Source: Microcystis aeruginosa NIES-843 (GTDB taxonomy: Bacteria; Cyanobacteriota; Cyanobacteriia; Cyanobacteriales; Microcystaceae). From it: a stretch of DNA of 32,000 nt. Below, one piece after another: positions 1 to 23,490 of this stretch (position 1 is the stretch's first letter; each line of letters begins with the position of its first letter). A program made the translations under genes and the position numbers. The stretch spans positions 3,240,001-3,272,000 of the forward strand of contig NC_010296.1 of the NCBI RefSeq assembly GCF_000010625.1, written 5' to 3'. The notes under the pieces were generated by a model that saw nothing but the letters and a program-made list of their open reading frames with translations, searched no databases and was not told the DNA's origin.

Positions 1-432
1 TTCGCAGACAAAATTGAATCCTATTTCGTCGAACACCAGCTAGATTATACCGGCGCGGTGATCTATGAGGTAGTGTTAGCAGATCAGGCGATGGCAGAGG
101 AGTTGTATGAATCGATTCAGGAGGAGGAAATCAGCTTTCAGGAAGTAGCGCATCGCTATATCGAGGATGTGGAATTACGACGCAAGGGAGGTTATCGCGG
201 TACTGTTTACCGTAAGGATTTACGACCGAATCTTTCGGCCGCAATTTTCGCCTCGGATTCTTCTCGATTGTTGAAACCGCTGCAAGGCGATCGAGGTTTT
301 CACCTGATTTTTGTCGAGGAAATCCTTAAACCAAAATTAACCGAGGAGTTGGCTCTGAAAATCGGTGTTGATTTGTTTAACGGCTGGGTAAAGGAGAAGA
401 TTCAAGAGATAGAATACGAGTTTAGTAATTAA
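1..432 (+). CDS. PpiC/parvulin-type peptidyl-prolyl cis-trans isomerase, C-terminal part (5' end lies upstream of the window)
   Basis: Frame 1 is open from base 1 (FADKIESYFVEHQLDYTGAV...) into the listed ORF 58..432. It has a rotamase-like block ISFQEVAHRYIED...GGYRGTVYRKDL...GDRGFHLIFVEEI. Stop TAA at 430-432. Confidence 0.7.
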   Translation, partial: FADKIESYFVEHQLDYTGAVIYEVVLADQAMAEELYESIQEEEISFQEVAHRYIEDVELRRKGGYRGTVYRKDLRPNLSAAIFASDSSRLLKPLQGDRGFHLIFVEEILKPKLTEELALKIGVDLFNGWVKEKIQEIEYEFSN

Positions 433-2475: not shown

Positions 2476-2635
2476 TAAATAACTCAATTAAGTTAGCTTG
2501 GTTGGTTCTCTTTGCTTCCAACAAGACAGGTTCAGAGTTTTTTGTACATAAATTACTCATTTTTGTTTCTTTAAATAGCTTGGAAGCCCGTTGTTTAATC
2601 GGTTTTGATGATGTTTTTGCAAAAAATAGTCTTTC

Positions 2636-2670
2636 AAAAAGAACATAAATAACTAAATTATGTTCTTTTT
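2636..2670. promoter_or_regulatory. Perfect 12-bp inverted repeat (aaaaagaacata-N11-tatgttcttttt) about 100 nt upstream of each peptide gene
   Basis: Seen at 2636-2670, 3865-3899 and 5094-5128. It could be an operator or an AT-rich terminator for the upstream zf gene. Confidence 0.35.
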
Positions 2671-2771
2671 GTTCGATTTTGATAGTTGATCTGGTGTTGA
2701 AAAATTGTTATGGTTTTCTTGAATCAATAATTTGATTCATTCATTTAGCGAAAATTTGGAGAATACATCTC

Positions 2772-2930
2772 ATGGCTAACATCAAAATCAACGAGCTCAA
2801 AAACACGGTGACTGACGAAATTATCGAGCTTCGCACCGATGCCGCTAACGACAGTCCAGAAAGCATCACCGCTTTTAAAACTTTACGTCAAGTTGCGGGC
2901 GGTACTATGGCTGCCAATTTTTTTTATTAG
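2772..2930 (+). CDS. GG-leader small peptide, copy 1 (52 aa; tail TMAANFFY)
   Basis: Not in the ORF track (<60 aa). GGAGA lies 9 nt upstream of the ATG. Sequence: MANIKINELKNTVTDEIIELRTDAANDSPESITAFKTLRQVAGG-TMAANFFY*. Hydrophobic residues at -4 and -7 relative to GG. Confidence 0.6.
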   Translation: MANIKINELKNTVTDEIIELRTDAANDSPESITAFKTLRQVAGGTMAANFFY

Positions 2931-2998
2931 TTTAAGTTTATTGTTGATTCCCTCGACTAATCCATTCGTTGTTCTTCGCTCGAAATAACTAATGATTT
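2931..2998 (-). pseudogene. ISL3-family transposase C-terminal remnant
   Basis: The reverse strand reads ...QIISYFERRTTNGLVEGINNKLKLIK(K/R), matching the NG.VEG.NNK.K.IKR block of ISL3 transposases. The fragment is only about 25 codons. A second copy lies at 4160-4227. Confidence 0.6.
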
Positions 2999-3186
2999 GG
3001 TTCTTCGTTACTTGGTATGGTTCGATCAGGGGGCATAAATCGGCTAAATCCTTATCTGGCAAGAGACTTAATTGATTAGCTCGTTCTAGATTGAAAACAA
3101 TTGGCAAAAATCGAAGCAATGTCTTTCTATATAAGGGTTTCACTCCTTATAACTCCCGTCCATTGCATAACACAAACCGAAGAACC
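2999..3186 (-). mobile_element. 188-bp ISL3-derived MITE
   Basis: Terminal inverted repeats ggttcttcg...cgaagaacc. The GGCTCTTCG-type terminus is typical of ISL3-family IRs. Same element at 4228-4415, 7834-8021 and 22128-22315. The internal MKPLYRK... ORF is a property of the element. Confidence 0.85.
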
Positions 3187-3250
3187 CGATTTGTTTAACG
3201 CCTGGGTAAAGGAGAAAATTCAGGAAATAGAATACGAGTTAAGTAATTAA
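3187..3250 (+). pseudogene. Fragment of the PPIase gene 3' end (last ~20 codons)
   Basis: gatttgtttaacgcctgggtaaaggagaaaattcaggaaatagaatacgagttaagtaattaa matches 371-432 (…DLFNGWVKEKIQEIEYE..SN*) with a few substitutions. There is no upstream coding continuation because the MITE abuts it. Confidence 0.85.
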
Positions 3251-3307
3251 TTGTGGACGGGGTGGGTTATGCTCACCCCGCAAACATAGTAAGGGAAGAT
3301 AAGAGTT

Positions 3308-3532
3308 ATGGAATGTGTGATCTGTAAACACGGCACGACTCGATCGGATTTTGTTACCGTTACTTTGGAGAGAGATAATTTTATCGTGATTCTAAAACAA
3401 GTCCCTGCGGATATCTGTCAAAATTGCGGGGAGTATTATCTAAGCGAGTCGGTTACGGCAGAGGTTTTACAGAAGGCCGAGGACGCGGTTAATAAAGGTG
3501 CGGAAGTAGAGATTATTCGCTATGTCGCTTAA
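3308..3532 (+). CDS. YgiT/MqsA-N-terminal-type zinc-finger protein (74 aa)
   Basis: CxxC (CVIC) ... CxxC (CQNC) zinc ribbon followed by GEYYLSE, the pattern of YgiT-type zinc-finger domains. No HTH domain follows. Identical copy at 4537..4761. Confidence 0.75.
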   Translation: MECVICKHGTTRSDFVTVTLERDNFIVILKQVPADICQNCGEYYLSESVTAEVLQKAEDAVNKGAEVEIIRYVA

Positions 3533-4000
3533 GTACAATATAAAACTATAAAATTAATACAATATGGATTAATAAAATACCAATAATCCGATTATTATTG
3601 AGTGAGTTTATTAAGCCTAAAAACAAACAAAGGTATTTTTAATACATACACTTTTAAAAATCTCTGAATTTATTTATTAACAGAATTCCCAGTTAATTAA
3701 AAAATAAATAACTCAATTAAGTTGGCTTGGTTGGTTCTCTTTGCTTCCAACAAGACAGGTTCAGAGTTTTTTGTACATAAATTACTCATTTTTGTTTCTT
3801 TAAATAGCTTGGAAGCCCGTTGTTTAATCGGTTTTGATGATGTTTTTGCAAAAAATAGTCTTTCAAAAAGAACATAAATAACTAAATTATGTTCTTTTTG
3901 TTCGATTTTGATAGTTGATCTGGTGTTGAAAAATTGTTATGGTTTTCTTGAATCAATAATTTGATTCATTCATTTAGCGAAAATTTGGAGAATACATCTC

Positions 4001-4159
4001 ATGGCTAACATCAAAATCAACGAGCTCAAAAACACGGTGACTGACGAAATTATCGAGCTTCGCACCGATGCCGCTAACGACAGTCCAGAAAGCATCACCG
4101 CTTTTAAAACTTTACGTCAAGTTGCGGGCGGTACTATTGGTGCCACTTCTTTTTATTAG
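4001..4159 (+). CDS. GG-leader small peptide, copy 2 (52 aa; tail TIGATSFY)
   Basis: Leader and SD are identical to copy 1. Tail codons are act att ggt gcc act tct ttt tat tag. Confidence 0.6.
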   Translation: MANIKINELKNTVTDEIIELRTDAANDSPESITAFKTLRQVAGGTIGATSFY

Positions 4160-4227
4160 TTTAAGTTTATTGTTGATTCCCTCGACTAATCCATTCGTTG
4201 TTCTTCGCTCGAAATAACTAATGATTT
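4160..4227 (-). pseudogene. ISL3-family transposase C-terminal remnant (copy 2)
   Basis: Same sequence as 2931-2998. The reverse strand reads ...NGLVEGINNKLKLIKR. Confidence 0.6.
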
Positions 4228-4415
4228 GGTTCTTCGTTACTTGGTATGGTTCGATCAGGGGGCATAAATCGGCTAAATCCTTATCTGGCAAGAGACTTAA
4301 TTGATTAGCTCGTTCTAGATTGAAAACAATTGGCAAAAATCGAAGCAATGTCTTTCTATATAAGGGTTTCACTCCTTATAACTCCCGTCCATTGCATAAC
4401 ACAAACCGAAGAACC
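4228..4415 (-). mobile_element. 188-bp ISL3-derived MITE (copy in repeat unit 2)
   Basis: Identical to 2999-3186. Confidence 0.85.
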
Positions 4416-4479
4416 CGATTTGTTTAACGCCTGGGTAAAGGAGAAAATTCAGGAAATAGAATACGAGTTAAGTAATTAA
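4416..4479 (+). pseudogene. Fragment of the PPIase gene 3' end (copy 2)
   Basis: Identical to 3187-3250. Confidence 0.85.
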
Positions 4480-4536
4480 TTGTGGACGGGGTGGGTTATG
4501 CTCACCCCGCAAACATAGTAAGGGAAGATAAGAGTT

Positions 4537-4761
4537 ATGGAATGTGTGATCTGTAAACACGGCACGACTCGATCGGATTTTGTTACCGTTACTTTGGAGA
4601 GAGATAATTTTATCGTGATTCTAAAACAAGTCCCTGCGGATATCTGTCAAAATTGCGGGGAGTATTATCTAAGCGAGTCGGTTACGGCAGAGGTTTTACA
4701 GAAGGCCGAGGACGCGGTTAATAAAGGTGCGGAAGTAGAGATTATTCGCTATGTCGCTTAA
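4537..4761 (+). CDS. YgiT/MqsA-N-terminal-type zinc-finger protein (74 aa), second identical copy
   Basis: Identical protein to 3308..3532. Confidence 0.75.
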   Translation: MECVICKHGTTRSDFVTVTLERDNFIVILKQVPADICQNCGEYYLSESVTAEVLQKAEDAVNKGAEVEIIRYVA

Positions 4762-5229
4762 GTACAATATAAAACTATAAAATTAATACAATATGGATTA
4801 ATAAAATACCAATAATCCGATTATTATTGAGTGAGTTTATTAAGCCTAAAAACAAACAAAGGTATTTTTAATACATACACTTTTAAAAATCTCTGAATTT
4901 ATTTATTAACAGAATTCCCAGTTAATTAAAAAATAAATAACTCAATTAAGTTGGCTTGGTTGGTTCTCTTTGCTTCCAACAAGACAGGTTCAGAGTTTTT
5001 TGTACATAAATTACTCATTTTTGTTTCTTTAAATAGCTTGGAAGCCCGTTGTTTAATCGGTTTTGATGATGTTTTTGTAAAAAATAGTCTTTCAAAAAGA
5101 ACATAAATAACTAAATTATGTTCTTTTTGTTCGATTTTGATAGTTGATCTGGTGTTGAAAAATTGTTATGGTTTTCTTGAATCAATAATTTGATTCATTC
5201 ATTTAGCGAAAATTTGGAGAATACATCTC

Positions 5230-5385
5230 ATGGCTAACATCAAAATCAACGAGCTCAAAAACACGGTGACTGACGAAATTATCGAGCTTCGCACCGATGC
5301 CGCCAACGACAGTCAAGAAAGCATTACCGCTTTTAAAACTTTACGTCAAGTAATGGGCGGTCGTGGTCAGTGGCGTCCGAGATAA
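5230..5385 (+). CDS. GG-leader small peptide, copy 3 (51 aa; tail RGQWRPR), in native 3' context
   Basis: Sequence: MANIKINELKNTVTDEIIELRTDAANDSQESITAFKTLRQVMGG-RGQWRPR*. Same GGAGA SD. Stop TAA at 5383-5385. Not in the ORF track. Confidence 0.65.
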   Translation: MANIKINELKNTVTDEIIELRTDAANDSQESITAFKTLRQVMGGRGQWRPR

Positions 5386-5521
5386 TAACAAAATACAGAG
5401 ATTGATCGGTATTTTATCGTTCTCTCTTTTTGATTTCTACGATAGTTCAACAAGTCAAGATACTCCGTTGACTATCGTGGAAATACTAACCAGACAAAGA
5501 TCGCATTTTTCGAGAATATGT

Positions 5522-6880
5522 ATGCTATTTTTAAACGATCTTCCCATTCCTTGGAGTCATCGCCCCTATTTCGATCTTAGTCCCTATCAATCCGGAGCTT
5601 GGCATATTCAAGGAATTGACTATAGCTATCGAAACCTCGTCTCCGAAGTACAAAATGTTGGTACGTCTCTTTCCGTGAACCCAGTTACTCTCGTTCACCC
5701 AGCTTCTTTTCGAGAACAATTAATTCGTGAGACTGGTCTTTTTCAATACTCGATTAAAAATCCTCTCGCTCTCCCCGATGAGTTGAGAACCGAGCGCTGG
5801 AGAGTTCTTTGCTCGCATTTAGTTCATTATCGGGAACTTTCACCCACTACTCAACTGGAAACAATTAATTTATTATCGAGTTTATGCTTTCATGAAGCGA
5901 TTCTTAAATATGTTACTGCGAGTACCGATGAAGACATCACGAGAGATTCCACGATCGCTAAATTAGCTTATAGTCGGGCGATGTCTAAAATCCTCTGTCA
6001 AGAAAGTATTGGCACATCGGAAAATCTTGAAGATTTAAAGCAGCTCGTTCAACACGCTTCTAAAGAAAGCTTCGTGGTTTTCGGGGCGGCCGTAGAACTA
6101 ATCGTTTTACACGCTACTGTATTTCGAGATCTAGCCGCGGTCGCTCATTGGCGAGAAGTGGCAAGCGGAGCGCTCGATCACCTCGAACCTTCCCTCGATC
6201 ATTTCGAGTTCAAACGTTTAACCAGTTTTTACCACCGCGCGGCTGTTTTCGCTCCACTTCTGCTGGGTGAGCGGCAAACAGTTGTCCGTGAAATGGATAT
6301 CTGCCAATCTCTAGCGGAAGAGCTGATCCGCGAGTGCAAAAATGAGACGGAACGAATTTCCGCCCATGACAATCTAACGACGGTTTTCGAGAGCCGAACG
6401 AAAGAAGCCCTCTGGTTGGGTGATATCGATCTCGCCGGAGAGAGAGCGAAGAAAATGGTAGAACTGGAACCTCTCTACTCTCACTATCGCCTACAACTAG
6501 GGGAAGTCTTACTAAAACAAAATAAATTTGAAGAGGCGGCGAAAATCTATCGCTCCGCCACTAGACTCGGCCCGCCTGGAATGGCGATCGCTTGGTTTAT
6601 GGCTGGGCAATGTCACGAACGATTAGGAGAGATAGACATCGCCTGTGATTGCTATCTAGCCTCCGTACAGATGGATGAACTAGCTATCTCCGCCGTGGAG
6701 AAAATTAACAAATTAGCTCCCCGTTTAGGTAACTCGATGCTGACAGATTGGAGTACCGCGCGTCTAGAACAATTACGGGAACAACAGCGAGGTATCGTCT
6801 CTAAAACGAAAACTTCCTATATTCCTGAAGCCGCTTCTGCACTGAAATTAGCGGGTGAACGCGAACTCTCTCAAATTTAA
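5522..6880 (+). CDS. All-helical TPR-containing protein of unknown function (start uncertain: the ORF is open from 5363; candidates are TTG 5402, GTG 5477, ATG 5522)
   Basis: Long ORF with coherent composition. C-terminal TPR-like repeats: AKKMVELEPLYSHYRLQLGEVLLKQNKFEEAAKIYRSATRLGPPGMAIAWFMAGQCHERLGEIDIACDCYLASVQMD. I recognise no catalytic motif or HTH. Confidence 0.7.
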   Translation: MLFLNDLPIPWSHRPYFDLSPYQSGAWHIQGIDYSYRNLVSEVQNVGTSLSVNPVTLVHPASFREQLIRETGLFQYSIKNPLALPDELRTERWRVLCSHLVHYRELSPTTQLETINLLSSLCFHEAILKYVTASTDEDITRDSTIAKLAYSRAMSKILCQESIGTSENLEDLKQLVQHASKESFVVFGAAVELIVLHATVFRDLAAVAHWREVASGALDHLEPSLDHFEFKRLTSFYHRAAVFAPLLLGERQTVVREMDICQSLAEELIRECKNETERISAHDNLTTVFESRTKEALWLGDIDLAGERAKKMVELEPLYSHYRLQLGEVLLKQNKFEEAAKIYRSATRLGPPGMAIAWFMAGQCHERLGEIDIACDCYLASVQMDELAISAVEKINKLAPRLGNSMLTDWSTARLEQLREQQRGIVSKTKTSYIPEAASALKLAGERELSQI

Positions 6881-6900: not shown

Positions 6901-6945
6901 GGTAGGTTGGGTTGACGCAAGGAAACCCAACAATTCCCCTAAAAC
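6901..6945. repeat. REP-like hairpin repeat (ggttgggtt gacgcaagg aaacccaac)
   Basis: Same family as 674-720 and 7787-7833. It lies 20 nt after the TPR gene stop and may double as its terminator hairpin. Confidence 0.7.
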
Positions 6946-7143
6946 TTACCGAAAACTCAATTAGGCAAAATCGTCTTACCACAGAAGTGATGCAAGAAAC
7001 TCAGATAGAGTTTGTTCGCTCCTATATTGATGCGGGTGAGTGTGGACTGACCCTGCTAAATAGACCTCTCCAATAATTGTCAAAATAAGAGATGAAGCCC
7101 TGACTAAGAGCTTATCAAAAATCTTTTCTGGAGAGGTATAATA

Positions 7144-7786: not shown

Positions 7787-7833
7787 CAAGGTTGGATTGA
7801 CAACGGAAACCCAACATCATCCCCCTATTATTC
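7787..7833. repeat. REP-like hairpin repeat
   Basis: caaggttggattgacaacggaaacccaacatcatccccctattattc is near-identical to 674-720 and ends at the same base, directly abutting a MITE. Confidence 0.8.
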
Positions 7834-8021
7834 GGCTCTTCGTTACTTGGTATGGTTCGATAGGGGGGCATAAATCGACTAAATCCTTATCTGGCAAGAG
7901 ATTTAATTGATTAGTTCGCTCTAGATCAAAAACAATTGGCAAAAATCGAAGCAATGTCTTTCTATATAAGGGTTTCATCCCTTATAACCTCCGTCCATTG
8001 CATAACACAAACCGAAGAGCC
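7834..8021 (-). mobile_element. 188-bp ISL3-derived MITE
   Basis: TIRs ggctcttcg...cgaagagcc. The interior is homologous to the copies at 2999, 4228 and 22128, with scattered substitutions. Confidence 0.85.
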
Positions 8022-8156
8022 GGATTAAGCCGCCATCACTACTACCGAATCACCACCAAGTGTTTGTCAATGTGACATTTTGGGCGCAAGCATTGCGTCC
8101 CCACTCATCCTTAGCGTAGGATTACTGGTTACTGATTACCGATCACCGATCACTGA

Positions 8157-12565: not shown

Positions 12566-12758
12566 CCCCTTGATAAGGGGGGTGCCGATAGGCGGGGGGA
12601 TCTACCCTTGATAAGGGGGGTGCCGATAGGCGGGGGGATCTACCCTTGATAAGGGGGGTGCCGATAGGCGGGGGGATCTACCCTTGATAAGGGGGGTGCC
12701 GATAGGCGGGGGGATCTACCCTTGATAAGGGGGGTGCCGATAGGCGGGGGGATCTACC
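12566..12758. repeat. 38-bp tandem repeat, 5 contiguous copies
   Basis: Unit cccttgataaggggggtgccgataggcggggggatcta. The tgataa landmark recurs at 12571, 12609, 12647, 12685 and 12723. There are no spacers between units. Confidence 0.9.
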
Positions 12759-12796
12759 TTAGCAATGACAATCCTCAAAGGGAAAATTTAGCGATT

Positions 12797-13156
12797 ATGA
12801 TTACCTGTCCTCGTTGTCAGCACAAGGTCGATAGTCAAGCCTTGCAATGTCCCTACTGTTTGAATATTTTCAAGGCCTATGGTCATCCCGGCATGACCCT
12901 GCATCAAGCTGTCACCAGCGAGTTTTTGTGTGAGACTTGTCTTTATCATGGCGATGATAGCTGTAATTTTCCCCAACGTCCCTACGCTACCAGTTGCACT
13001 TTATACAAAAATAGCCAAATAATAGCCGAAAAAATTCCTCCTCTCCCTCTCCCTAGGATGTTGAAAAATTGGTGTCTCAGGAATAAGGGATTATTGCTAT
13101 TATTAACCATGATTTTGGGCAGTATTGCCCTGGCTTTTATAAACTCACGTCGTTAA
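12797..13156 (+). CDS. Zinc-ribbon protein with a C-terminal transmembrane anchor
   Basis: MITCPRCQHKV...CPYC...CETC... and C-terminal LLLLLTMILGSIALAFI. The listed ORF start at 12722 lies inside the tandem repeat, so ATG 12797 is preferred. Confidence 0.55.
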   Translation: MITCPRCQHKVDSQALQCPYCLNIFKAYGHPGMTLHQAVTSEFLCETCLYHGDDSCNFPQRPYATSCTLYKNSQIIAEKIPPLPLPRMLKNWCLRNKGLLLLLTMILGSIALAFINSRR

Positions 13157-22027: not shown

Positions 22028-22122
22028 GGTGTTAGGAGTCAGGAGACAGGAGCCGGTCGTCAGGAGTCAGGAGTCAGTAGTCAGGAGTCAGTAGTCAGTA
22101 GTCAGTAGTCAGTAGTCAGGAG
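22028..22122. repeat. Heptanucleotide (STRR-like) array AGTCAGG/AGTCAGT
   Basis: ggagtcaggagtcaggagtcagtagtcaggagtcagtagtcagtagtcagtagtcagtagtcagg, directly after the RND stop codon. Confidence 0.9.
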
Positions 22123-22127
22123 ATTAT

Positions 22128-22315
22128 GGTTCTTCGGTTTGTGTTATGCAATGGACGGGAGTTATAAGGGATGAAACCCTTATATAGAAAGACATTGCTT
22201 CGATTTTTGCCAATTGTTTTCAATCTAGAACGAGCTAATCAATTAAGTCTCTTGCCAGATAAGGATTTAGCCTATTTATGCCCCCTGATCGAACCATACC
22301 AAGTAACGAAGAACC
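22128..22315 (+). mobile_element. 188-bp ISL3-derived MITE with an 8-bp target-site duplication
   Basis: TIRs ggttcttcgg...cgaagaacc. It is flanked on both sides by GAGATTAT (22120-22127 and 22316-22323), and an 8-bp duplication is the ISL3-family size. Confidence 0.9.
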
Positions 22316-22338
22316 GAGATTATTTTTATTTATTCTTC

Positions 22339-22459
22339 CTACACCCCACACCCTACACCCTACACCCTACACCCCACACCCCACTTCCCCACACCCCACA
22401 CCCCACACCCCACACCCCACACCCCACACCCCACACCCCACACCCCACACCCCACACCC
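22339..22459. repeat. Heptanucleotide array (CCCCACA)n, array A
   Basis: It begins with variant units (ccctaca x3, ccccaca x2, cttcccc), then perfect ccccaca units. It ends exactly at the group II intron 3' end. Confidence 0.9.
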
Positions 22460-23244
22460 GTTACAGTAGAGCAGGAAGTCGCCTTCCCACCCCCTGCTTC
22501 AAAACCGGACTTACGACTTTCGCCGTATCCGGCTCCTGAGTAACTAGGCTACTGTCATTAGTAGAATAATAATGGGAATTATTATTTCCTTGTCTATTCA
22601 ACCCTCTTGGCTGTATCCCCACCAGACAAGATTGTTGGTTTTAGGGCGTATATGACCGTTGATTGTTGCTTAGACTTCCTAGTTACCCGTCCTTTGTCAG
22701 CATATCTTTGATATTACTCAAAGCCTTGGCTTTTAAGGACATCCTCTCCCTCTATTGACTTGCGGATGGTTTCCTACTGCCCCGAACGGGCAGAGTCAAT
22801 CAGGGTTACTTCGTTCCCTATAACCATTGGTTGAACCCTTAGGATGATACTGTCCACAACAGAGTAACGGGAATGCCTTACTGATAGTGGTATGAGCTAT
22901 CAGCCCCAACTCTGTTAACTTTTGTTTCGAGCCTGTCAGCCTTTTGGCTCGTGGGTGTTGACGATGGTTAATTCGTATCTTCGCCCCAGGGCTATCCATA
23001 GGTTCTGGCTCAACGGGTTTCTGATTTAGGCTATCAGATACCGCTTTTTTTTCCTCGCTCACTACCTCAGATGTACCAAGTCTAAAGCAGCAGGAAATGC
23101 CGTCACTCTAGGCATCTAGAGGACAGGACTAAGGTTATTACTAACCCGCACCTGTAGGGTTATAAAGTTATCAAGGTACTACATTTACCAAGCGGCTAAT
23201 CCTCTAAACGTCTTACTGTCTAGTTTCTAGCCAACGAATCGCAC
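22460..23244 (-). mobile_element. ORF-less group II intron (about 785 nt)
   Basis: The reverse strand starts GUGCGAUUCG (5' consensus GUGYG). Domain V lies at 22502-22535: GAGCCGGAUACGGC-GAAA-GUCGUAAGUCCGGUUU, i.e. 34 nt with the AGC triad, a GNRA loop and a 2-nt bulge. A domain-VI-like hairpin follows and the intron ends ...CUACUGUAAC. Joining the flanks restores an uninterrupted GGGGUGU repeat. No RT ORF is present. Confidence 0.8.
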
Positions 23245-23470
23245 CACACCCCACACCCTACACCCTACACCCCACACCCCACTTCCCCACACCCCACACC
23301 CCACACCCCACACCCCACACCCCACACCCCACACCCCACACCCCACACCCCACACCCCACACCCCACACCCCACACCCCACACCCCACACCCCACACCCC
23401 ACACCCCACACCCCACACCCCACACCCCACACCCCACACCCCACACCCCACACCCCACACCCCACACCCC
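23245..23470. repeat. Heptanucleotide array (CCCCACA)n, array B (about 32 units)
   Basis: It has the same variant head as array A (ccctaca, ccccaca, cttcccc), then a long perfect run. It ends 20 nt before the antiporter ATG. Confidence 0.9.
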
Positions 23471-23490
23471 ATCTCTGATAACTGAAAATA

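Follow-up and report, generated by a model that had tools for sequence, protein, structure and literature searches.

A tandem array of leader peptide genes in Microcystis aeruginosa NIES-843, probably homogenised around an older two-allele core block

The four amino-acid changes that set apart two otherwise near-identical 1.2-kb repeats in Microcystis aeruginosa NIES-843 are best read as an older, two-allele block of 12 nt in the core of a double-glycine (GG) leader peptide gene, around which a tandem precursor array has probably been homogenised. The block exists in two states with no intermediates, both alleles occur on common flanks, the units are mosaic and the core is of chimeric origin, all of which can be seen directly in the sequences compared here. 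The repeats lie in the 32,000-nt stretch of DNA that was analysed (the window), in which the following features bear on the argument.

1..432, plus strand: 3' part of a PpiC/SurA-type PPIase gene, inside which the window begins
2476..3704, plus strand: tandem unit 1, from the offset-1229 comparison and repeat families D1-D4
3705..4933, plus strand: tandem unit 2, the same as unit 1 except at 5 sites
4934..~5361, plus strand: partial unit 3, with promoter and leader as in units 1 and 2, ending just past the GG codons
2772..2930, plus strand: precursor 1, 52 aa, leader MANIKINELKNTVTDEIIELRTDAANDSPESITAFKTLRQVAGG and core TMAANFFY
4001..4159, plus strand: precursor 2, 52 aa, leader as in precursor 1 and core TIGATSFY
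5230..5385, plus strand: precursor 3, 51 aa, core RGQWRPR, the MAE_35960 of NIES-843
2909..2920, plus strand: dimorphic 12-nt block of unit 1, haplotype G-C-A-T
4138..4149, plus strand: dimorphic 12-nt block of unit 2, haplotype T-G-C-C
2913..2996 and, in unit 2, 4142-4225, minus strand: ISL3 transposase C-terminal fragment (..IISYFERRTTNGLVEGINNKLKLIK[K/R][I/S]G; Pfam PF01610, NCBIfam NF033550)
2992..3191, 4221-4420 and 7827-8026, plus strand, and 22128-22331, inverted, minus strand: MITE of ~200 nt
3188..3250, plus strand: duplicate of the 3' end of the PPIase gene (its last ~60 nt), ~91% identical to 370-432
3308..3532 and 4537-4761, plus strand: YgiT-type zinc-finger gene, 74 aa, with a variant at 490-687
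5519..6880, plus strand: gene for a TPR solenoid protein, conserved and always behind the terminal precursor

Comparison of the sequence with itself at an offset of 1229 identified five positions at which 2476-3704 and 3705-4933 are not identical: 2495 (A in unit 1, G in unit 2), 2909 (G/T), 2911 (C/G), 2917 (A/C) and 2920 (T/C), whose counterparts in unit 2 are 3724 for the first and 4138, 4140, 4146 and 4149 for the other four. These four fall in codons 46, 47, 49 and 50 of the 52-codon ORFs 2772-2930 and 4001-4159, where unit 1 and unit 2 read atg/att (M/I), gct/ggt (A/G), aat/act (N/T) and ttt/tct (F/S). The probability of finding at least four of five differences within a 12-nt span is 1.35e-5 when the five are placed at random on 1229 sites (2,000,000 simulations); the clustering is real and non-random. 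The original prediction, made by eye, had described near-identical 1229-bp units with a single other difference (2495 against 3724) and four amino-acid-changing substitutions within 12 nt, and the exact alignment, the count of four differences out of five within those 12 nt and the codons of both ORFs bear this out.

Each full unit runs from a promoter and spacer through the precursor gene, an 84-nt minus-strand fragment of an ISL3 transposase C-terminus, the ~200-nt MITE, the PPIase-tail copy and the zinc-finger gene to an AT-rich spacer, and the PPIase-tail copy at 3188-3250 marks the junction of the tandem duplication. Unit 3 differs from unit 2 at 3849, 4075, 4086 and 4096, and beyond the GG codons the two sequences diverge. 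The G at 3724 of unit 2 is common to unit 3 (G4953) and unit 1 has A2495; rightwards from 3849, unit 2 agrees with unit 1 and not with unit 3. A segment of 233 nt (2243-2475) precedes unit 1, as it does the second and third precursors of a related contig (L013), and is absent from units 2 and 3, which have this deletion in common. Judged by these markers, unit 2 looks like a hybrid whose left end is of the unit 3 type and whose right part is of the unit 1 type.

Further repeats and mobile elements were observed in the window. A 37-nt near-palindrome, CAAAAAGAACATAAATAACTAAATTATGTTCTTTTTG, stands at 2635-2671, 3864-3900 and 5093-5129, ~100 nt upstream of each precursor start, and could be an operator or form a hairpin in the precursor transcript. 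In a contig from another sample (L008), a precursor unit is joined via the MITE to window sequence in inverted order (22087 to 12761), an arrangement suggesting that ~19 kb was inverted by way of the MITE in a related strain, unless the assembler passed from one copy of the repeat to another. The first YgiT zinc-finger gene (490-687) encodes 65 aa with a C-terminus unlike that of the 74-aa repeat copies; its homology to them stops at ~662, where a 45-nt hairpin-containing element (676-720) is inserted, of which a further copy is found at 7789-7833 and a partial copy at 6904-6948. Between this gene and the spacer lies an IS110-family element (762-2069) with a frameshift-split transposase (ORFs 1009-1710 and 1490-1945), and its site is empty in the related contigs L001 and L013, where window positions 761 and 2070 are contiguous. 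An orphan group II intron domain V/VI on the minus strand (22460-22537; RF00029, 55 bits, E = 2e-8) has heptamer repeat arrays around it (22034-22122, 22341-22459 and 23244-23471), and a perfect 38-nt tandem repeat, CCCTTGATAAGGGGGGTGCCGATAGGCGGGGGGATCTA, at 12567-12758 (5.1 copies, 100% identity) overlaps the start of ORF 12722-13156.

The leader of all three precursors reads MANIKINELKNTVTDEIIELRTDAANDS(P/Q)ESITAFKTLRQV(A/M)GG and is followed by TMAANFFY, TIGATSFY or RGQWRPR (computed [M+H]+ 964.423, 859.420 and 955.533), giving predicted mature peptides of only 7-8 residues. It ends in ...AFKTLRQVAGG, with V at -4 and L at -7, as a double-glycine leader does, and the GG is invariant in 17 family members. 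The homologues all come from Microcystis and combine a nearly invariant leader (90-100% identical) with short cores that cannot be aligned, among them CCRWCCC.., RCRWPQIC, AAAAKWTVKW.. and RLCCWRYTF. Canonical cores of the family hold Trp and often Cys (consensus GGxCxW), whereas TMAANFFY and TIGATSFY have neither, and the cores of terminal units vary widely and stepwise, in contrast to the two-allele, ISL3-linked core. MAE_35960 has been listed as a group II bacteriocin precursor of 51 aa at AP009552 3245230..3245385 with a mass of 5817.57 Da (PMC3140520), and ORF 5230-5385 is identified with it by coordinate digits, length and computed mass (5817.53 against 5817.57), which places the window at about 3,240,001-3,272,000 of the NIES-843 genome. 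It is the single precursor entry for NIES-843 in that 2011 catalogue (PMC3140520), from which the two 52-aa ISL3-linked genes appear to be missing (PMC3140520); a literature search for MAE_35940-35970 gave no main-text match. Precursors 1 and 2 are accessory copies in this array of GG-leader peptide genes. Public versions of the precursors with 62 aa (P0002, P0023 and P0024; loci L002-L004), ending in ..FYQFKFIVDSLD, were set aside as a gene-calling artefact: the DNA has the same TAG stop, which the code used reads as Gln, so that these calls are not read-through alleles.

The order of genes in syntenic loci (L006, L013 and L014) is a cNMP-binding/C39-peptidase ABC transporter, HlyD and a PpiC/SurA-type PPIase, followed downstream by the YgiT zinc finger, one or more precursors and a TPR protein of ~450 aa, and the end of the PPIase in the window is 94-96% identical to that of these loci. 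The C39-peptidase ABC protein (872 aa, with cNMP-binding, C39 and ABC domains) and HlyD (484 aa) lie outside the window, in the syntenic Microcystis loci, and the three precursors are predicted to be GG-leader peptides for C39-peptidase ABC export, with cleavage and secretion putative. No tailoring enzyme (LanM, YcaO, rSAM, P450 or similar) was found in the window or in L006 and L013, and only the PpiC-type rotamase, the YgiT zinc finger and the all-alpha TPR protein stand beside the precursors. An AF2 model of the TPR protein is an all-alpha solenoid (pLDDT 88.9) for which Foldseek returned generic TPR matches only (designed CTPR, OGT, APC/C, IFIT5 and LGN), with RNPP receptors not among the top structural matches, and the protein has no HTH Pfam match and no recognisable DNA-binding or phosphatase domain. 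An RNPP-type peptide receptor is not supported by these generic fold matches and the absence of an HTH or phosphatase effector domain, and sequence searches likewise pointed to nothing more specific than generic TPR proteins. A precursor-plus-TPR cassette beside C39-ABC/HlyD is also present in Chlorogloeopsis and in Nostoc, where the leader belongs to this family and the core is LATRKACWCVQHVF. Between strains, variation in the terminal precursor goes with variation in the TPR gene that follows it (5230-6880; L006, L009, L013, L037 and L038), the terminal types being RGQWRPR, RCRWLTR, AAAAKW.. and a divergent MAEIKINQ.. leader with a TPR gene beyond the reach of blastn, which hints at a possible co-evolving cassette of peptide and partner.

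Alignment shows the core of precursors 1 and 2 to be a chimera, made by fusion of the GG leader to an antisense ISL3 transposase remnant. In precursor 1, codons 48-52 and the TAG stop come from the antisense strand of the ISL3 fragment, and the tail is laid out as GG, three codons (T-M-A or T-I-G) and A-x-x-F-Y-stop, the last part being antisense to G-(S/I)-(R/K)-K-I-L. The minus-strand ORF 2883-3143 reads ..IKKIG in unit 1 and ..IISYFERRTTNGLVEGINNKLKLIKRSG in unit 2, Microcystis ISL3 transposases read ..IISYFERRTTNGVVEGINNKLKLIKRRGYGFRNF.. at the corresponding end, and DNA homology with an ISL3 copy of M. flos-aquae (L007) spans TTTTATTAG up to the GCC at 2913-2915. The variable sites 2917 and 2920 are inside this ISL3-derived part, and 2909 and 2911 are in the 9 nt between the GG codons and the junction. 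At 4146 and 4149 the C of unit 2 is the ancestral state of ISL3 (the Arg that is invariant in the IKR motif), whereas unit 1 has the derived bases; TIGATSFY is nearer the ISL3 ancestor than TMAANFFY. Given that the tail is without the Trp/Cys motif of the usual family cores, the function of the chimeric peptide is uncertain, and it may be a decaying by-product of rearrangement.

Both tails are established in the wider population. The survey comprised 39 ISL3-linked units on 37 sequences, namely the window and 36 contigs, drawn from ENA and JGI metagenomes, Logan (one contig) and NCBI MAGs and retrieved by exact-protein look-ups; a metagenome scan with a gapped pattern in which the tail was left free gave one contig (L005) and a scan of a genome collection by leader alignment gave one locus (L006), so the population data are those of the exact-protein look-ups. 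Among these units, many of which share a lake or a time series and are not independent, two tail haplotypes and no others were found: G-C-A-T (ACTATGGCTGCCAATTTTTTT, TMAANFFY) in 18 of 39 and T-G-C-C (ACTATTGGTGCCACTTCTTTT, TIGATSFY) in the other 21, with no intermediate haplotype among the 39. The two cores are likewise those of the protein cluster, whose leaders vary as L9/I9, L20/F20 and P29/Q29. Independent public assemblies contain both haplotypes in identical form, which excludes sequencing error in the NIES-843 record as their source. Two further points of the original prediction hold: the search of other strains that it proposed recovers either tail in public assemblies, and a cluster of this kind is indeed not neutral drift after a recent duplication, both tails being pre-existing, population-wide alleles.

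The tails are not tied to their surroundings. Each is found on several flank backgrounds, and the NIES-843-type flank, a 'type-1' upstream flank and a third flank carry either tail. All four gametes are present for the block against 2828, 2796 and 2495 on the left and against 3607 on the right; many between-allele pairs show 0 differences across 456-479 nt of flank, and mean flank divergence is 2.8% between and 2.1% within alleles, against 33% inside the block. Two contigs of 3099 nt from sister samples, L009 and L023, are set apart by the four sites and one other only, and their terminal precursor and TPR gene are of a quite different kind. Within genomes, units resemble each other. The tandem units of L013, L014 and L016 (period 1509), both TIGATSFY, have the lineage-specific leader variants 2846C, 2857A and 2867T in common, and the identity of the L013 units is limited to a tract of 639 nt, with 9 and 8 differences at its borders, and is a conversion tract. 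The window units likewise have 2558C, 2712G and 2796C in common, and the L9/I9 state of the leader is uniform within a genome and differs between genomes. Paralogues that have variants in common within a genome, together with mosaic tracts, are what concerted evolution leaves behind. The NIES-843 record is the only sequence in the survey with the two alleles in tandem, and hence the only one to phase the array; short-read assemblies break or collapse at the array.

Tandem paralogues generally evolve in concert, through gene conversion and unequal crossing-over, and may retain islands of divergence; the array is best read in these terms. The 1.2-kb units would have been duplicated and then homogenised by unequal crossing-over and by gene conversion between units, with homologous recombination between strains also evening them out. 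The 12-nt block would be an older dimorphism, either left unconverted or re-imported by a short recombination tract, and recombination has uncoupled the pre-existing tail alleles from their flanks and would shuffle them among units and strains. Unequal crossing-over between unit 1 and unit 3 would yield a hybrid like unit 2 and would thereby explain the fifth difference (2495 against 3724). The product of such a crossover would start with the tail of unit 1, so that the second tail needs either import or an older two-tail array: a short tract from a near-identical relative might have brought the other allele after a recent duplication, or the flanks of an older two-tail array, or of older paralogues, might have been homogenised around the block. 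Both are recombination and not new mutation. We infer this order of events for NIES-843, and also that the block escapes homogenisation either through selection for two peptides or through rejection of heteroduplexes with four mismatches. Gene conversion from another paralogue, as in the original prediction, comes close to the data, which add the uncoupling of tails from flanks by recombination.

It is conceivable that the four changes are instead new point mutations that followed a very recent duplication, driven by positive selection or by targeted hypermutation such as a DGR. The identical flanks and the highly non-random cluster would suit such an origin; however, both haplotypes occur unchanged in other lineages on different flanks, and this is the least probable of the readings considered. 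A DGR is not supported: there is no reverse-transcriptase ORF in the 32 kb, in which only the orphan group II intron fragment was met with (no RT domain among the 19 window ORFs scanned against Pfam, those at ~8-22 kb being identified by synteny or by reading), no template copy at <=5 mismatches in the window, changes (G/T, C/G, A/C and T/C) that are not adenine-specific, and two haplotypes only in 39 units. The targeted diversification put forward in the original prediction likewise finds no support in the 32-kb window or in the 39 units. Donors of conversion were also sought. Inside the window, searches with both 21-mers on both strands at <=5 mismatches matched themselves only. An AAAAKW-type core (L006: gct gct gct gcc aaa tgg) was rejected as the sole cause, since its gctgccaa match explains only 2911 and 2917 and needs a tract of ~9 nt. 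An ISL3 copy (reverse complement gcc tct ccg ttt tat tag) was rejected as a donor too; its agreement with unit 2 at 2917 and 2920 does not extend to the adjacent bases, and the two sites are better read as retained ancestral states. The pair of tails might, finally, be an artefact, a single unit or a mixture of strains having been misassembled as two units that differ in tail. Assembly of tandem 1.2-kb repeats is difficult, and L009 and L023 show assemblers choosing one tail or the other. Nevertheless, coordinates and precursor alike agree with the complete NIES-843 record AP009552, from a genome which we take to be clone-finished, tandem ISL3-linked pairs have been assembled independently in three JGI metagenomes, and unit 2 has a marker of its own (G3724, common to unit 3) as well as the common deletion junction. 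Misassembly is thus very improbable.

With recombination around an older dimorphism as the preferred reading, the persistence of the block might be due to selection for two peptides or be neutral, two readings that are ranked about equal, with effects at the RNA level ranked low. It is possible, if unlikely, that one complex multi-nucleotide mutation made the second allele once and that the block has since persisted neutrally, its four mismatches in 12 nt stopping or rejecting conversion tracts with no need for peptide selection; such an account bears on how the block arose and why it lasts, and can stand beside the recombination described above. It would account for the lack of intermediates in 39 units, for three of four changes being transversions and for there being just two alleles, as against the wide stepwise variation of terminal-unit cores; the chimeric cores, without the W/C motif, may be non-functional, one lineage has lost the dimorphism and has TIGATSFY twice, and four nonsynonymous changes out of four are not unusual by chance if, on a rough estimate, about three quarters of random changes are nonsynonymous. 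On the other hand, the L013 conversion tract crossed the block region, though the units there were perhaps already identical at the block, and both alleles are at intermediate frequency on several backgrounds, which also fits balancing selection. The proposal that diversifying or balancing selection on the 8-residue peptides keeps two variants and favours genomes with both is doubtful, though worth retaining. The core has 4 nonsynonymous and 0 synonymous changes against 3 and 5 in the leader, the leader of the family is almost invariant and its cores unalignable, both alleles are common (18:21) on several backgrounds, and both are together in NIES-843; but Fisher's test gives p = 0.07 only, there are two alleles only, the cores arose by accidental fusion to antisense ISL3 and have no canonical W/C, neither a modifying enzyme nor a receptor dedicated to the tails was identified, with generic matches for the adjoining TPR protein, and one lineage has the identical allele twice. 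The diversifying selection on the tail suggested in the original prediction is one possible reading, weakened by the tail being an antisense-transposase chimera without the usual Trp/Cys motif. Selection on RNA is improbable. It would require that the block lie in a terminator- or attenuator-like hairpin with a U-run and that the alleles differ in termination strength, and terminator-like hairpins are indeed present just before the stop at 2898-2925 (8 U, unit 1) and 4130-4154 (interrupted U-run, unit 2). A terminator scan picks just these two sites in the region (GGCGGTACTATGGCTGCC+AATTTTTTTT in unit 1 and GGTACTATTGGTGCC+ACTTCTTTTT in unit 2), with hairpins of -9.3 and -6.7 kcal/mol, both alleles fit the simple consensus of an intrinsic terminator, and the two ISL3-side changes make the U-run of unit 1 longer. 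Yet the number of such sites is that expected after shuffling (2 found, 2.4 expected), the stability of the 16 haplotypes is set by site 2911 alone with no compensatory valley behind the missing intermediates, and termination at the U-run would precede the TAG stop and give a non-stop mRNA. Compensatory evolution of the RNA was rejected after folding of all 16 haplotypes, which revealed no stability valley.

The locus can be compared with several known systems. Cyanobacterial double-glycine bacteriocin clusters of groups I and II (Wang, Fewer and Sivonen, PMC3140520) and the small-secreted-protein system EbfG/PteB of Synechococcus elongatus (PMC4997328) have the same short GG-leader precursors, which adjoin HlyD, a SurA/PpiC rotamase and a C39-peptidase ABC transporter of the long type that includes a cNMP-binding domain (PMC3140520, PMC4997328); in Microcystis, unlike in these systems, the mature peptides are predicted at just 7-8 residues. 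Prochlorosins (ProcA) and cyanobactin patE-type cassettes (PMC4663559, PMC2890512; PMC10783134) also combine near-invariant leader and flank DNA with sharply different cores and have several precursor genes per genome, and the conserved leader and highly variable core across paralogues and strains by which they are known are found here; the Microcystis locus, in contrast, is without a lanthionine synthetase, heterocyclase or other tailoring enzyme, and its ISL3-linked core has two alleles and no large library. With concerted evolution the array has in common the within-genome variants, the sharp-edged tracts of identity, the four gametes on both sides and the hybrid unit 2, whereas the retained island is here 12 nt only and sits at the junction of the leader-transposase fusion. 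Recruitment of coding sequence from a transposable-element remnant is matched by the five core codons and stop that are antisense to an ISL3 C-terminal fragment. Pherotypes, such as those of ComC/CSP or PlcR-PapR, are discrete allele classes of peptide signals, with counterparts among bacteriocins, and they resemble the present case in having few, sharply distinct alleles across lineages, recombining flanks and a TPR gene beside a short-peptide gene; the Microcystis TPR protein, however, is without a recognisable DNA-binding or phosphatase domain and its role as a receptor is putative. It is rather improbable that the tails are functional secreted peptides from an antisense transposase that form a balanced, pherotype-like pair, possibly read by the TPR protein. 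If true, this would be a signalling or kin-discrimination polymorphism in a bloom-forming cyanobacterium and the de novo birth of a bioactive core.

In summary, the array is a tidy but fairly unremarkable instance of a variable tail behind a conserved leader, and it offers a view, at single-nucleotide level, of how an array of precursor peptides evolves: recombination would keep promoter, leader and flanks uniform and reshuffle discrete core alleles among units and strains, and a new core can arise when the leader is joined to DNA of other origin, in this instance an IS fragment in antisense. Two unlisted precursor genes, with exact masses, are added to a catalogued Microcystis locus. If the peptides are inactive, the block cautions that repeats can differ by a cluster of nonsynonymous changes without selection being at work; if they are active, its two forms would give access to interactions between strains in blooms.
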